From NCBI GenBank assembly GCA_944384375.1, contig CALWTE010000015.1:2237-66236 (forward strand): 64,000 nt of DNA, read 5' to 3'. Origin of the DNA: an uncultured Clostridia bacterium (GTDB lineage: Bacteria > Bacillota > Clostridia > Christensenellales > UBA1242). The position numbers were made by a program, and so were the translations under genes. The notes below the pieces were generated by a model that worked only from the letters and a program-made list of their open reading frames with translations, did no database searches and was not told the DNA's origin. Below, in pieces: positions 6,111-51,072 of the stretch; positions within the stretch are counted from its first letter, which is position 1, and each line of letters opens with the position of its first letter.

Positions 6111-6632
6111 TTATGCTGTAGTTTCTGCGTTGTCATCTGTTGGGAGTGGGGTACCATTTAAGGTATAAATTACGTACATTTGATAGTATGTAGATTCGCT
6201 ATCTGGAGTATTATTTCTAATATCTTCGGTACTTTTTAAAGGGCCGAAATTAAAATATAATACATTGCCATCAAAATAACCATCAGTCCAGAATTCACCT
6301 TTATAAGTAAACTCAACCTTGCCTTCGCTGTCAATCGTATATGCATCTACGAAAGACACTTCTACTGAAGAAGATTCAGGAGAAGAGTGGGTAACTGTAC
6401 CATCACTGTTTAATGTTAAATCAGCGGTCCATTTAACAGACACAGGTAAAGTATCTTCAACTCCATAATTAGTTACTTCGTCTGTAGTAGTATTTATTAA
6501 ACGATACCCTACAATCTTATATGTACCATATTCAATCTCGTATGATTCCCCACACGCTGTAAGCAACATTGCTATAGGTATTATTAGCAAAATTGCCAGC
6601 ATCCCAAAACCAAACGTTTTAACTTTTTCCAT
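6111..6632 (-). CDS. Lipoprotein of unknown function (lipocalin-like beta fold possible)
   Basis: Signal peptide with lipobox LTAC-G; GTYKIVGY segment; acidic Ser/Thr-rich mature part. Confidence 0.7.
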   Translation of the reverse strand: MEKVKTFGFGMLAILLIIPIAMLLTACGESYEIEYGTYKIVGYRLINTTTDEVTNYGVEDTLPVSVKWTADLTLNSDGTVTHSSPESSSVEVSFVDAYTIDSEGKVEFTYKGEFWTDGYFDGNVLYFNFGPLKSTEDIRNNTPDSESTYYQMYVIYTLNGTPLPTDDNAETTA

Positions 6633-6658
6633 AAAATACCTTTTCCTTTGTTAGATTT

Positions 6659-7459
6659 TTACGCTTCTACATAAGAATCTAAGTCGCTAGGTGCTTTTAC
6701 TTCTTCATCAGAAACAGCAAGTTGTATGTCATATGTTACATTAGCAGTCTCATTATTAGGTCCTGTAGGCATTTCACCTTGTGCTTTAAATGCTATACCA
6801 CGGAAGTTGTCTTCACCATCAAAAATGATATACATTTCTAATTGAGTAACACCTTCTGGCTTTTCATTTAGAGTTACTTTAATTTTTTGAGCATTACGTT
6901 CTTCAGCGAAACCTACTATCATGTTGTCACTGCCAGAATCTCCTATGCCACCAAACATGTCCATAATCAATTCAGGACTCATACTTGAAGCTGCTCCTAA
7001 TGCGCCACTAGGGTCATCATTAAGTGAGGTGACTTTTGTCTTTGTACCATTGTTGTTTAGGTATGCTTCAACAGTACCTGCGCTTGTAATTTCAATGTAC
7101 ATTGAGCCGTCGTAGTTTTGGTCAAACTCTTCGCCGTTTACGTAGGCTTCAATCATCATCTTCATACCAGTTACTTCAGTACCTTCCATAGTTGCTTGAG
7201 CATGACCAGTTATTTCCATTTTGTTACCGCCAACTTCAAGCATGTATTTCATTTCATAGCCTGTAGGCACATCCATAGTATCTAAAGAATTCATTAATTG
7301 ATAAGCTTTAGATTCTTGCAAGTTATCAGCAGATATTTCTTCATAGCTTCCGCCTAAGTCAATCAAGTCTTGATTGCCACAAGCAGCAAACAAAGGAAGG
7401 CAAAGAACAACTAATAAAGCAGGAACAATGAACAAGCCTATTCTTAAACTTTTTGTCAT
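6659..7459 (-). CDS. Lipoprotein of unknown function
   Basis: Signal peptide with lipobox FAAC-G; RBS AGGAG; acidic beta-rich mature part. Confidence 0.75.
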   Translation of the reverse strand: MTKSLRIGLFIVPALLVVLCLPLFAACGNQDLIDLGGSYEEISADNLQESKAYQLMNSLDTMDVPTGYEMKYMLEVGGNKMEITGHAQATMEGTEVTGMKMMIEAYVNGEEFDQNYDGSMYIEITSAGTVEAYLNNNGTKTKVTSLNDDPSGALGAASSMSPELIMDMFGGIGDSGSDNMIVGFAEERNAQKIKVTLNEKPEGVTQLEMYIIFDGEDNFRGIAFKAQGEMPTGPNNETANVTYDIQLAVSDEEVKAPSDLDSYVEA

Positions 7460-7603
7460 AGTTTACTCCTTAAAAAATTTTTTTGGACTCCTATTTAATT
7501 AACTAATTACAAAATATTACTATTTTGCAGGTGGTTTTATCAGTTAACTAAACAGAATGGTATTACAAATTGCCTTTTAGCAATATTATAATTGAATTTA
7601 AGA

Positions 7604-8052
7604 GTACAATCTAATTTTGTATTTCGCTTTCGCTCAGTACAAACGATTGCACTTCCGTACAATCTAGTATTGCACCCTTTTTTTGATTAGGGTACAATCT
7701 AATTTTGTCCCCTCCCGTTGTTGGGTACAAACGATTGTCCTAGTACAATCTGTACTTTTCTTTACTAAAGTACAAACGATTGTCCTAGGGTACAATCTAA
7801 TTTTGCATTTCGCTTTCGCTCAGTACAAACGATTGCACTAGAGTACAATCTAATTTTGTACCTTTTTTAGTGTAAGGTACAAACGATTGTACCAGTACAA
7901 TCTAAAGATTGTCCTTTCTATTATATAGAGTACAATCTAATTTTGTCCCCTCCCGTTGGTGGGTACAAACGATTGTCCTAAGTACAATCTAATTTTGTAC
8001 TCCTTTGGGTCGGAGTACAATAGATTGCACTCAGTACAATCTAATTTTGTAC
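7604..8052. repeat. Array of 17 GTACAA-based palindromic boxes with alternating variable 14-16 nt and 2-4 nt spacers
   Basis: Box A GTACAATCTAATTTTGTAC (variants at 7604, 7692, 7743 shortened, 7790, 7843, 7930, 7982, 8034), box B GTACAAACGATTGYMC (7637, 7725, 7770, 7823, 7877, 7963, 8015 variant), hybrid boxes at 7657 and 7895. Confidence 0.95.
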
Positions 8053-8185
8053 AATTTTGAGAAAATTGTCAAGCGAATTAGTGTAATTAAATACACTAAT
8101 AGTGAAGTAATTTGGGGAAATAACGCAAGTATTATTAAAATATGACAAAAAATACAAAAAAGTAACCTAAAATTATTAAATTTGT

Positions 8186-8215
8186 TTGACAGTTTTTGTA
8201 AATTTAGAGTAAAAT
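8186..8215 (+). promoter_or_regulatory. Sigma-A-like promoter for the hypothetical-radC operon
   Basis: TTGACA-18 nt-TAAAAT, 25 bp upstream of the ORF at 8241. Confidence 0.6.
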
Positions 8216-8240: not shown

Positions 8241-8609
8241 GTGATAAATATGATTTTAGAAAATCCTTTAAGAAATAGAAATCTAAAAGATAAAAATGAT
8301 AACTTTGCGACAGATTTAGATGACAAAATTTACAAATATTTGGTAGACAACTTTTTCTATAACTTAGGCTTTAATTATATAGCGCAAGATAACCTAAATT
8401 ATTTAGTAGATTCTCTAAAGGCACACAGGGCGGCGTTCTATTCGGTAGGTTATTATGATTTAGTGGAGGAAATGAATTATTTTCTTGATATTTTAGTGGA
8501 ATATTTACCAAACATAGATTTGAAGAATAAATATCAGCATAAAGAGCAATTTTATAAAGAACCTAGCCTGAATTTTAAAGAAAAATTTTTAGCAGGAATA
8601 GAAAGTTAG
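8241..8609 (+). CDS. Hypothetical protein
   Basis: 122-aa ORF 9 bp upstream of radC; no motif recognised; start uncertain (GTG 8241 or ATG 8250). Confidence 0.6.
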   Translation: MINMILENPLRNRNLKDKNDNFATDLDDKIYKYLVDNFFYNLGFNYIAQDNLNYLVDSLKAHRAAFYSVGYYDLVEEMNYFLDILVEYLPNIDLKNKYQHKEQFYKEPSLNFKEKFLAGIES

Positions 8610-8618
8610 GGTGCTTTT

Positions 8619-9371
8619 ATGCGGAAAGATGCAAAAAATCATTTAGGGCATTTTGAACGTATCCGAAAGAAAATAATCACAGGGAATCCTTACGATTACG
8701 AAGAAATTGATGTAGTTGAAATGCTTTTACAAGGTGTTTTTGTAAGAGCAGATACTAATGAAATTGCAAGATTTTTGCTTGCAAAATATAGGACTTTTCA
8801 AAATCTTTACGAAAAGGCAACAGAGCAAGAATTGTTAAAAATTCCAGGTTTTGGGTTAACCAGTGCTAGAAAATTGCTGGCTTTATTAAAATTGTTTAAA
8901 TATGCTAGACTCGCTCCTAGTGCTGTTACTATATCTACAAACAAAGAAAATTTCAATGACTTAGTAAAACACGTTCGCAATCAATTTGAGTTTGTTGAAA
9001 AAGAATGTTTTGTGGTTTTGGTATTGAATAGGCAACACGAAGTTATTGAAACAAAACTTGTAGCAGTAGGTGATACAAATCACGTTGTGCCTGATTTAAA
9101 TGAGATAGTAGAACTGGCTCACACCTTTAAAAGTACAAACCTAATCTTTGCACATAATCATTTAAATTCTAGTTTTTATCCATCTACCGAAGACATAGAA
9201 TTCACGTCTCGGGCAATAGTACATTTGCGTAAGAATGGCATAGATTTATTAGACCATTTAATTATAACTAATGTTGGTTATTTTAGTTTTTCGGCATCAC
9301 ACTTAATGAACAGAATAATTGCTCGCCTTAAAAATCCCGCTCTGCGCAATATGAAATGGGACGGAAATTAA
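8619..9371 (+). CDS. radC: RadC / JAB-domain protein
   Basis: N-terminal HLGHFERIRKK, helix-hairpin-helix KIPGFG, intact JAB motif AHNHLNSSFYPSTED and LLDHLII. Confidence 0.9.
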   Translation: MRKDAKNHLGHFERIRKKIITGNPYDYEEIDVVEMLLQGVFVRADTNEIARFLLAKYRTFQNLYEKATEQELLKIPGFGLTSARKLLALLKLFKYARLAPSAVTISTNKENFNDLVKHVRNQFEFVEKECFVVLVLNRQHEVIETKLVAVGDTNHVVPDLNEIVELAHTFKSTNLIFAHNHLNSSFYPSTEDIEFTSRAIVHLRKNGIDLLDHLIITNVGYFSFSASHLMNRIIARLKNPALRNMKWDGN

Positions 9372-13621: not shown

Positions 13622-14542
13622 ATGAGTAGCTTCATGAATAAAAAAGTTGCTTTGATTATGAGCGTAGTTGTTACATTGTGTCTAGTGGTGGCGCTTTGCG
13701 TTGTTTTCCTTTATAATCCCACAAACCCAGCTACGACTTTGGAACAGGTAAGTAATGACAATACTGTACAATCTAGTACGGGTGTGGCTAGCGGTGATGT
13801 TTTGACCGTTGACGTAACTGGTGGTAGTTATGATACTAGTACAGATGGTACAAATACGACTTATACCGCTACACCTAGTAGTGGTTACCGTTTTGCTTAC
13901 TGGCAAGATGGTAGTGGTATAAAATTTTCCGCTGATTTAAGTGTTACCACGACTAGGGCTAATTGTGTTCCTGTATTTATTCAAGAAAGCGCTGTGGTAG
14001 AAGTTTCTACACAGGCAGAATTATTAAACGCATTTACGACTAATAATAGCGCAAGTGCTATGATAGTCCTTAAAAATGACATTAAAGTAGATAGTTCATT
14101 TACAATGGTTGCCTCATTTGCAGGCACATTAGATGGTGCTGGTTATGGCCTTGATGGCTTAACAAGGTCTGGTTCTGATAATGTAGGTGGTATTTGTGGT
14201 ACTCTTACTGGCGTAATTAAGAACTTAGAAATTCGCGGTACTGTTAGCGGTACTGGTAATGTTGGTGCATTTGCTGGCACTTTGAATGGTGGTTTGCTAT
14301 CTAGATGTTCTAACTTCGCAACAGTAAACGCAGGTAATAGTGGTACTGCTGGCGGTATGGTAGCGACAGCAACTGGTAACACACGTTCTTGCTCAATTTA
14401 CTACTGTGCAAACTACGGTTCTATAATAGGTAACAACGTAGGTGCAGTTATTTTCACAAACGGCACAAGCGACAGTCCTATTTGTAACCTAATTCAAAAT
14501 ACAAACGAAGGCGCATTGCAGACAACAAACGCCACCGCTTAA
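13622..14542 (+). CDS. Membrane-anchored surface protein with an InlB B-repeat-like segment and GLUG-like repeats
   Basis: N-terminal TM; ATPSSGYRFAYW; FAGTLDGAGY; repeated NVGGICG / NVGAFAG / TAGGMVA units. Confidence 0.7.
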   Translation: MSSFMNKKVALIMSVVVTLCLVVALCVVFLYNPTNPATTLEQVSNDNTVQSSTGVASGDVLTVDVTGGSYDTSTDGTNTTYTATPSSGYRFAYWQDGSGIKFSADLSVTTTRANCVPVFIQESAVVEVSTQAELLNAFTTNNSASAMIVLKNDIKVDSSFTMVASFAGTLDGAGYGLDGLTRSGSDNVGGICGTLTGVIKNLEIRGTVSGTGNVGAFAGTLNGGLLSRCSNFATVNAGNSGTAGGMVATATGNTRSCSIYYCANYGSIIGNNVGAVIFTNGTSDSPICNLIQNTNEGALQTTNATA

Positions 14543-14742
14543 ATAATTAATTAGATTATTAATAAAATGCTAATTAGATAACAATTAAATAAATCCAAAC
14601 AAAAAGTCCATTTTAATCTATCGGTTAATTTGTGGCTTTTTATTTTTACATTTATAGAGTTTATTCGGCAAAAATATGGGGCTTAAATCATTGCTTTTTG
14701 CTTGAAAATTTTGTACAATGTAATTCATAAGGGGCGAGAAGT

Positions 14743-15111
14743 ATGAAGTTTTGGGATTTTATTACTACGACGCTAGGGTTGAGTGAAGTTAGTGAGCCAG
14801 TAAAGAAACGTTCTCCGCAAATTACACCTAATCTTGAAATGCACGGCTCAAAAATTTCTATTCAAACTCCTGTTGATTTTAATGATATTACAAGGTTTGT
14901 ACGCAGTCTAAATAAAAATATTCCATTGATTGTAAATTTCAGTTCTTTAAAGCCAAACGAAGCCGAGCGTAGCCTAGATTTTGTATGCGGTGCCGTGTGC
15001 GCTCTAAACGGCAAGTTAGAGAGAATAGGCGATGGGATTTACTTTTACGCGCCAGCAGGCGTTAGTGTGGAGACGGACAAAAAATACAAAGGGAAAAGAT
15101 ATGGAAATTAA
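14743..15111 (+). CDS. sepF: Cell division protein SepF
   Basis: P-x-x-F-N-D, LIVNF, RSLDFVCGAVCALNGKLERIG...AP motif. Confidence 0.88.
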   Translation: MKFWDFITTTLGLSEVSEPVKKRSPQITPNLEMHGSKISIQTPVDFNDITRFVRSLNKNIPLIVNFSSLKPNEAERSLDFVCGAVCALNGKLERIGDGIYFYAPAGVSVETDKKYKGKRYGN

Positions 15112-21589: not shown

Positions 21590-21624
21590 TGCATAATACC
21601 GTGCATAGTACTAGGTATTATGCA
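21590..21624. repeat. Cluster of three TGCATA(A/G)TAC(C/T) motifs forming a hairpin
   Basis: TGCATAATACC 21590, TGCATAGTACT 21602, inverted GGTATTATGCA 21614. Confidence 0.75.
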
Positions 21625-21730
21625 TTTTTTGTTATAATTTTTATTTTTAACAATTTATTAAAAGTTAAAAATGAGTATTGAAATATGCATAATTCTGTGG
21701 TATAATAACACGGCAAAAGGGGAATAGAAA

Positions 21731-50590: not shown

Positions 50591-50679
50591 GGTACTATTC
50601 ATATGCATAATACTTGTTTTTAATATGCATAGTACTTGTTTTTGCGAATAGTTTTGTTTAAAACACAATGCATAGTACT
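50591..50679. repeat. Cluster of four TGCATA(A/G)TAC-type motifs
   Basis: Inverted GGTACTATTCA 50591, TGCATAATACT 50604, TGCATAGTACT 50626 and 50669. Confidence 0.7.
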
Positions 50680-51072
50680 TAAAATAGGGTTATAGTTGCA
50701 AATTTTAATTTGCAGTTATACTTAAGTTTTTTGACTTAAAAATTTTTGTTTTGTTTAGTTTTTTGATAAAATTTGTTTAAAATACTTAGTATTGTTTTGC
50801 TGTTTATTATTTAATTGTTATTGTTTTATTTAGCAATACAAAATTATATTTTTAATATTATATTTTAATCATATTTTTGCGCTAATACACTAAGAATATT
50901 TTATTTTTTATTTTAAATATTTTTTAACTAAGTATTTTATAAAAATTTTTAAATTAGCAAAAAATTTTTGCTAGTCTAATTTAAATGTGCAATAGCTTAT
51001 TTTAATTAAAAACCAAAGTTTAATATTAATTATATTAAAAAAACAAAACCTAGTTATTTTATCACTTTACAC

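Follow-up and report, generated by a model that had tools for sequence, protein, structure and literature searches.

Clusters of the BIME-2/REP type consist of tandem imperfect palindromes that alternate in orientation, are separated by alternating long and short linkers, lie in intergenic regions and vary in copy number between strains; their families occupy tens to hundreds of dispersed loci and are accompanied by RAYT. TIGR arrays, which are built differently, combine two 8–12-nucleotide (nt) spacers with box C/D motifs and have a Nop-domain Tas gene alongside (PMC12045711; bioRxiv 10.64898/2026.09.09.750476). Here we analyze a stretch of 64 000 nt (hereafter the window) from an uncultured Clostridia bacterium of the order Christensenellales (GenBank assembly GCA_944384375.1, contig CALWTE010000015.1, positions 2237 to 66 236, forward strand), in which an array of palindromic boxes occupies positions 7604–8052. 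BIME-2/REP clusters are its closest look-alike and share with it all of the structural features named above, but the array is found at one locus. It matches no described family and is neither a guide array, nor a set of integron-type sites, nor a member of the REP/BIME group.

We tentatively favor the reading, to which we assign a probability of roughly 0.38, that the array is a species-specific row of palindromic units that arose beside an orphan, strain-variable lipoprotein operon and serves as the minus-strand hairpin leader of that operon. What carries this reading is the make-up of the array, its reshuffling between strains, its association with the lipoprotein genes and the strand on which its units fold.

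Architecture of the array

Box A (GTACAATCTAATTTTGTAC, ≤3 mismatches) had eight matches at 7604–8052, all on the plus strand, against 0.09 expected, and box B (GTACAAACGATTGTAC) had seven sites against 0.69 expected. When a truncated A box at 7743 and a hybrid box at 7895 are added, pattern counts reach the 17 boxes claimed in the initial annotation, as 10 A-type and 7 B-type boxes. The array and its parts, to which no strand is assigned, are as follows.

7604–8052: whole array of 17 boxes, arranged as seven complete A-spacer-B units, two units that are short or hybrid, and a terminal A box
A-type box starts: 7604, 7657, 7692, 7743, 7790, 7843, 7895, 7930, 7982, 8034
B box starts: 7637, 7725, 7770, 7823, 7877, 7963, 8015
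7604–7652: U1, spacer a, TTTCGCTTTCGCTCA; the first unit in every allele seen
7657–7691: S1, variant box GTACAATCTAGTATTGCAC and 16-nt segment CCTTTTTTTGATTAGG; its B box is lost here and kept in other alleles
7692–7740: U2, spacer b, CCTCCCGTTGTTGG; both right half-sites are GTCC, which leaves mismatches uncompensated
7743–7785: U3, truncated A box (GTACAATCTGTAC), spacer c (TTTTCTTTACTAAA), then a B box
7790–7838: U4, spacer a reused; right half-sites GCAT and GCAC
7843–7892: U5, spacer d, CTTTTTTAGTGTAAG; the cleanest two-stem hairpin
7895–7929: S2, short hairpin GTACAATC-TAAA-GATTGTCC and 15-nt segment TTTCTATTATATAGA
7930–7978: U6, spacer b', CCTCCCGTTGGTGG; a copy of U2 with one base changed
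7982–8030: U7, spacer e, TCCTTTGGGTCGGA; variant box B' GTACAATAGATTGCAC
8034–8087: terminal unit, with an A box, then the palindromic 15-mer AATTTTGAGAAAATT and an inverted, degenerate arm that resembles an A box (GTCAAGCGAATTAGTGTAAT)

Read from the left, the units follow one another as U1(a), S1, U2(b), U3(c), U4(a), U5(d), S2, U6(b'), U7(e) and the terminal A box. Both box types are near-palindromic, B being an inverted and shortened A. The initial annotation overstated the regularity of the array: the units at 7657 and 7895 are short or hybrid hairpins, and the A box at 7743 is truncated. The hairpin of S2 joins the 5' half of an A box to the 3' half of a B box.

The nine long variable segments measure 14–16 nt and comprise seven different sequences, two of them used twice, in line with the seven or so sequences first estimated. 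Linkers after B boxes are 2–4 nt long, so that long and short linkers alternate along with box orientation in a REP/BIME-like architecture, and the unit period is 51–53 nt. A unit can be read as four modules in series. The first is a 16-nt constant segment (GTACAATCTAATTTTG), followed by ∼18 nt of variable sequence; a second constant segment, of 13 nt (GTACAAACGATTG), leads into a variable tail of 5–7 nt.

All 17 left half-sites read GTACAA in the same orientation. Box centers, calculated from the coordinates, lie 31.5 base pairs (bp) and 20.5–21.5 bp apart, which corresponds to three and two helical turns. The segment 7657–7742 is repeated at 7895–7980 with 83% identity and the array therefore contains a higher-order duplication. 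At the right end, the terminal unit is identical in all alleles and grades into unique sequence; from its make-up, it is a possible progenitor of the units.

Unit gain, loss and reshuffling between strains

Other alleles were read from assembly contigs of other samples that encode an identical orf119, the gene to the right of the array. The window allele was assembled identically and independently in three other samples, so the array is not an assembly artefact, a possibility that the initial annotation had raised, and variant alleles occur in further samples. Comparison of spacer content and order between strains, which the initial annotation had proposed, revealed alleles that differ in both unit number and unit order. 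Three contigs that span the whole array (L173, L178 and L179) have the same flanks and carry nine, five and seven units, respectively, in different orders, and a contig from a more distant strain (L184) reads unit a, then unit c twice, before it ends. The same allele variation is seen in Logan contigs, and one scaffold has a gap at the position of the array.

All five alleles draw on about eight variable segments, namely a–e, f (AATTCCCTTACGGGA), g and h. Segment g is that of S1, and is followed by a B box in alleles of the L173, L178 and L179 type; segment h is that of S2. A 3' variant of box A is always accompanied by its own spacer, and the 3' variant of box B forms a separate small module with its linker. 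Because the box variants move with the spacer or the linker, the breakpoints must lie within the constant segments of 16 nt and 13 nt. Some deletions also run from one 7-nt direct repeat to another. Units are thus gained, lost and reshuffled between strains; we infer slippage or unequal exchange as the cause, for which a dedicated recombinase would not be needed.

Restriction to one species and association with the lipoprotein operon

The array occurs once in the 1.18-Mb genome of the bacterium (33.7% G+C, 93% complete, 38 contigs), where all seven box matches with ≤2 mismatches and all matches of a covariance model built from the array units fall at this one locus. It was not found in 60 relatives by pattern search, in 200 further genomes of the family by the covariance model, or beside the orf119 homologues of 12 congeners. 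JGI metagenomes, IMG/VR, and phage and plasmid collections likewise gave no match to the array. A looser three-box pattern run over metagenomes returned only unrelated short-period tandem repeats, and a scan of public genome contigs with a 16-mer, which is too short a pattern, gave single chance matches only. At least eight studies of the chicken gut have metagenome runs that contain part of the sequence.

In the same samples, a sister species whose orf119 is 60% identical keeps the gene order LOR - SIMPL - ... - orf119 - radC and the orf119 promoter. Despite this conserved synteny, the sister species lacks both the array and the pair of lipoprotein genes that lie to the left of the array in the window. 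Conversely, the lipoprotein gene occurs in three lineages (100%, 95% and 89% identity), and in each of them the array adjoins it. Because array and lipoprotein operon co-occur in three lineages and are both missing from the sister species, the comparison ties the array, as a species-level novelty, to the lipoprotein operon and not to orf119-radC.

Folding of the units

For the cleanest units, energy minimization as RNA and as DNA alike recovers the hairpin proposed in the initial annotation. This hairpin has an 8-bp outer stem, an internal loop of TAAT against C (4 versus 1 nt), a 7-bp inner stem extended by one to three spacer pairs, and a variable loop. In an alignment of the seven full units, 86% of the stem cells are paired. 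The spacer ends covary: the first spacer pair is formed in 7/7 units (U-A in four, C-G in three), with a covariation score above those of all 500 shuffles, and the spacer types of all strains add up to 21 consecutive complementary pairs at their ends, a sum reached by none of 20 000 shuffles. Part of the proposal did not hold, since several stems contain uncompensated A·C or C·T oppositions; more generally, the right half-site variants GCAC, GCAT, GTAT and GTCC produce A·C, G·U or C·T oppositions that no change on the other side makes good. The left half-sites show no variation from GTACAA in the four full-length alleles. In the more distant strain, GTGCAATC is found, which would pair perfectly with the common GATTGCAC.

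Spacers are only 40–70% alike, whereas boxes are identical. Because the spacers have diverged this far while keeping a steady length of 14–16 nt and their loop-closing pairs, these data argue for a hairpin under constraint rather than pure drift.

Several features distinguish the two strands. Folded as a whole, the array reaches −170.7 kcal/mol on the minus strand (z −12.8) and −148.3 kcal/mol on the plus strand (z −9.8). As RNA, U4 folds only on the minus strand (z −2.48 versus −0.06 on the plus strand), because its GCAC and GCAT variants give G·U pairs there and A·C oppositions on the plus strand. U1 reaches −13.3 kcal/mol (z −3.0) as minus-strand RNA; as single-stranded DNA, this spacer-a unit does not fold better than shuffled sequence. 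Purines make up 76% of the loop positions on the minus strand (48/63, P = 4e-5), and the two loops of 4 nt read there as GNRA loops (C-GAAA-G and C-GUAA-G).

A putative minus-strand leader

A promoter-like site lies within the invariant terminal unit and faces both the array and the lipoprotein operon.

8044–8072, minus strand: promoter-like site TTGACA-17-CAAAAT, matching at 10/12 positions

No terminator-like hairpin was found between the array and the lipoprotein start. Taken together, the whole-array fold, the G·U variants, the failure of unit a to fold as single-stranded DNA, the purine-rich and GNRA loops, the promoter-like site and the lack of a terminator are why we favor a minus-strand leader. 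Under this reading, the array would work as a single-stranded nucleic acid, most likely minus-strand RNA. Transcription would start in the terminal unit and proceed leftward into the lipoprotein genes, producing a leader of ∼580 nt with about ten hairpins. Such a leader could act in cis on the stability of the transcript, on transcription through the region or on translation, and differences in unit number between alleles would then alter lipoprotein expression. If so, the array would offer a clear natural example of a contingency-type locus in a gut member of the Clostridia that is uncultured and has a reduced genome. A fast-reshuffling leader would there vary a surface antigen from strain to strain and possibly from cell to cell.

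Several observations weigh against the leader. The promoter-like site is weak, and eight such sites were counted compared with 7.0 ± 2.8 in shuffles. Runs labelled ‘METAGENOMIC RNA-Seq’ cover the organism thinly and evenly, and this coverage could be DNA. The strand argument rests on few mutational events, because the C-to-T variant GTAT favors the plus strand and GTCC breaks pairs on both strands. Box centers spaced by three and two helical turns would suit a protein that binds double-stranded DNA, and the combination of invariant left half-sites with variable, uncompensated right half-sites fits motif recognition better than purely structural selection. Finally, one 5' hairpin would be enough to stabilize an mRNA, so ten need another reason.

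Alternative explanations

Rather unlikely, in our assessment, is a functionless or selfish palindromic minisatellite, in which a palindrome of a promoter region was duplicated in tandem, with the terminal unit as its surviving progenitor. Concerted evolution would account for the uniformity of the boxes, which would stay identical because every exchange runs through them, while loop regions drift and any effects on neighboring genes are incidental; the palindromic spacer ends would stem from template-switch ‘quasipalindrome correction’ instead of selection. Much of what is described above suits this explanation: the array is confined to one species, its units turn over fast, broken units are tolerated (a truncated A box, a missing B box and S-type deletions between GTACAAT...GTACAAT repeats), stem mismatches go uncompensated, a partner gene was not found, and the array passes gradually into unique sequence at its terminal unit. 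The spacers are harder to reconcile with it, for their similarity is near random, yet the length of 14–16 nt and the closing pairs are always kept, where neutral drift should give indels and broken loop-closing pairs. The strong strand bias of loop composition also speaks against it.

Unlikely, too, are phased protein-binding sites on double-stranded DNA, of an operator-, nucleoid-protein- or centromere-like kind. A dimer or oligomer would bind the near-palindromic boxes of 16–19 bp along one helix face, in the control region from which the lipoprotein operon and orf119-radC diverge. The helical phasing of the box centers, the 17/17 invariant and co-oriented GTACAA half-sites and the position between divergent genes would all be explained. 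Box B, a 16-bp palindrome with a central CG, also presumably resembles operators of the LacI/GalR type. The two boxes differ, however, in the gap between their half-sites (7 bp in box A, 4 bp in box B), and because of these different center lengths one dimer could not fit both. The genome holds no further site, the GTACAATC 8-mer occurring 40 times outside the array, at about chance level, and no regulator gene lies near the array. Ten or more operators per promoter pair would be unusual, and the complementary spacer ends and G·U-type variants would have no meaning for double-stranded DNA.

We regard as improbable a trans-acting multi-hairpin RNA (a sponge, decoy or guide-like RNA) or a set of single-stranded DNA recombination sites whose partner is encoded elsewhere, the idea put forward in the initial annotation. 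Points in its favor are the combination of constant stems with fixed-length variable loops, the differences in the array from strain to strain, the resemblance of the folded unit to a folded attC site and a layout of two constant and two variable modules that loosely recalls TIGR dual-repeat arrays (PMC12045711). A guide function is contradicted by the spacers themselves: the five alleles share only about eight types, which are reused and reshuffled instead of being added to, have self-complementary ends and lack targets, with only low-complexity or 11–12-nt chance matches in the bacterium's own genome. Recombination sites fit no better, given that the 2–4 nt between units leave no cassettes and that unit a does not fold as single-stranded DNA. 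As to a partner, the genome has neither a Nop/Tas protein nor a Y1 transposase, the neighboring genes gave no match to a defense system and no partner gene was found; because the array is not conserved beyond one species, and is lacking even in the sister species that shares the flanking genes, a co-evolving partner cannot be traced.

Very improbable is a more specific form of this idea, in which the array supplies the RNA (or single-stranded DNA) of an undescribed system, a trans-encoded protein docks onto the constant two-stem hairpins, the variable loops of 8–12 nt confer specificity or act as decoys, and strains swap ∼52-nt ‘cassettes’ within the constant segments, which if true would make the array a minimal hairpin-array system without known effector genes.

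Neighboring genes and intergenic sequence

The array lies inside a 790-nt intergenic spacer flanked by divergent gene starts. Features on both sides are the following.

6111–7459, minus strand: two orphan lipoprotein genes (266 and 173 amino acids), both encoding a signal peptide and a lipobox Cys
6659–7459, minus strand: 266-amino-acid lipoprotein gene, start codon at 7459, left of the array
6111–6632, minus strand: 173-amino-acid lipoprotein gene
7460–7603, no strand assigned: leader of unique sequence between the lipoprotein start codon and the array, with TATAAT at 7587–7592 (TGTTATAAT in other strains)
8186–8215, plus strand: orf119-radC promoter TTGACA-18-TAAAAT, also kept in the array-less sister species
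8250–9371, plus strand: orf119 and radC, a pair conserved in congeners without any array
8250–8609, plus strand: orf119, small helical protein
8619–9371, plus strand: radC, JAB domain

Neither lipoprotein has a family match in Pfam, NCBIfam, PHROGs or PADLOC. The 266-amino-acid protein is 89–95% identical between strains, compared with about 98–100% for the flanking DNA, and the two orphans are candidate fast-evolving surface antigens. Within the unique leader, positions 7576–7594 occur in two allelic forms, TTTTAGCAATATTATAAT in the window and TAAATAGACAATGTTATAAT in other strains; the latter creates an extended −10 element (TGnTATAAT) on the plus strand, ∼7 nt ahead of the first box.

The orf119 family is small, with 27 representatives among 1.84 billion proteins, some of which have long C-terminal extensions, and its gene lies immediately upstream of radC in at least three species. 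An AlphaFold model made with no alignment is all-helical and poor (pLDDT 54), and orf119 has no PADLOC or Pfam match. The orf119-radC pair is probably not part of the array system.

On a 983-nt scaffold that is 98.3% identical over orf119 (L180:1–330), orf119 is joined to a translational-GTPase-like gene at the latter's 5' end, and the two meet exactly at the −10 box (TAAAAT) of the orf119 promoter; neither the array nor the lipoprotein gene is present there, and the GTPase part has no DNA match in the genome of the window. The scaffold represents either a strain rearrangement or a chimeric assembly. In a congener (G005), the 720-nt spacer upstream of the orf119 homologue (L152:1840–2150) contains GC-rich repeated blocks in an AT-rich genome, with CATCCTGAGCCTCGACCCGCG and GAAGGA[TC]CTATTCCT each occurring twice; these blocks may be another structured element.

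Other repeats and palindrome avoidance

A separate, dispersed family, GTA[CT]TATGCA (often GGTACTATGCAT or ATGCATAGTACC), occurs as direct or inverted copies spaced 11–12 or 22–24 nt apart. It forms 71 clusters genome-wide, 57 of them intergenic and mostly after gene ends, and the exact 9-mer is found 109 times compared with 15 expected. A relative of another genus (G034) has five copies with a 22-nt period. The family looks like the REP-like family of this clade or a global binding site; it shares only a GTAC ‘foot’ with the boxes of the array. Examples are listed below.

21590–21625 (C15:23826): GTA[CT]TATGCA
50600–50680 (C15:52840–52905): GTA[CT]TATGCA
L163:1276–1475: GTA[CT]TATGCA

Several 4-bp palindromes are strongly avoided in the genome, with observed/expected ratios of 0.03 for GATC (56 sites in 1.18 Mb), 0.07 for TCGA, 0.10 for CCGG, 0.23 for AGCT, 0.31 for GGCC and 0.34 for CATG; GTAC, TTAA and AATT occur at expectation. 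This avoidance suggests long pressure from several restriction systems.

Comparison with known systems

The initial annotation had described a structured array that matches no known family, and this description stands. In Rfam, the best matches score 23 bits compared with gathering thresholds of 89–140 bits (E ≥ 0.13), and no recombinase or cas gene was found among the 30 open reading frames scanned in the window, in agreement with the initial annotation.

A number of candidate explanations were considered and rejected. CRISPR arrays have repeats of 23–47 nt, spacers of ∼26–72 nt and cas genes; the B-linker-A segment of ∼37 nt would pass as a repeat, but the spacers of 14–16 nt are reused and self-complementary. 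The genome's own CRISPR arrays (contig C16:6304–7227 and 14234–14800) have a 66-nt period and an I-C-like repeat (GTTTCAATTCACTCACCCCGCGTGGGGGTGAGAC), and are unrelated to the array. ToxI-like repeats of type III toxin-antitoxin systems, which are near-identical, directly repeated and co-transcribed with an endoribonuclease toxin gene immediately downstream, were dismissed given that orf119 has its own conserved promoter, array-less homologues in 12 congeners and the sister species, and no defense or toxin match. The 15-mer AATTTTGAGAAAATT is one mismatch from a CodY box, but the genome lacks CodY, and its three near-matches compared with two in shuffled sequence point to chance. A decoy for a GTAC-specific restriction system is not supported, GTAC being present at 0.98 of expectation, nor is a replication origin or terminus, as GC skew stays uniformly positive throughout the 71-kb contig and does not change sign at the array. 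Loops resembling Shine-Dalgarno or anti-Shine-Dalgarno motifs (CCUCC and CUCCUU) do occur, but nothing can be inferred from them: the ends of the spacers form complementary C/G-rich clamps, so that either kind of motif turns up on either strand. Tandem sigma-70 promoters were likewise rejected, as the units read TTGTAC-17/18-CAAAAT on the minus strand, with hexamers that match at only 3–4/6 positions.

Folded on the bottom strand, integron attC sites share with the array units two stems, an asymmetric unpaired center, a variable terminal structure and inverted half-site copies. They differ in that the most conserved unit of the array does not fold as single-stranded DNA. The attC cores RYYYAAC and GTTRRRY are not present in the array sequence, there are no gene cassettes between units, and no integron integrase was found among the annotated neighbors in the window.

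Like the array, TIGR arrays alternate two constant with two variable segments, are compact and are missed by CRISPR finders. The variable segments of the array, in contrast, measure ∼18 nt and 5–7 nt, with one long spacer (14–16 nt) per unit, and its stems are constant. No Nop domain was found in the neighboring open reading frames, and the Nop domain model (PF01798) had no match at E ≤ 0.01 in the 93%-complete genome, where controls responded, although a very divergent Tas could escape the Pfam model.

Multi-hairpin regulatory RNAs and structured 5' leaders of Firmicutes, such as sponge RNAs of the CsrB/RsmZ type and 5' stem-loop stabilizers of mRNA, also place a row of hairpins in one transcript, in lineage-variable number, and the position of a leader fits the minus-strand reading that we favor. 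Sponge RNAs, however, have a conserved loop motif and variable stems, which is the reverse of the array, and the leader role of the array is predicted from its sequence.

In addition to their dispersal, REP/BIME families differ from the array in their linkers, which are conserved motifs where the long linker of the array is its variable part. Unlike in REP/BIME, the two box types of the array pair with each other into one long hairpin, and unlike BIME-2/REP clusters, which follow gene ends, the array lies between divergent gene starts. The genome has no match to the Y1 transposase/RAYT model (PF01797), again with responding controls. A BIME-like row of palindromes can thus arise and diversify at one locus without RAYT, which bears on the origin of such arrays. 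The comparison also illustrates that constant repeats with variable spacers of fixed length need not mean a guide-RNA system; such an array can quickly be told from a guide array by spacer reuse, self-complementary spacer ends and the absence of conservation outside a single species. We class the array as a kind of clustered palindromic units or hairpin-array leaders, unusual in its single locus, its variable loops and its reshuffling between strains.

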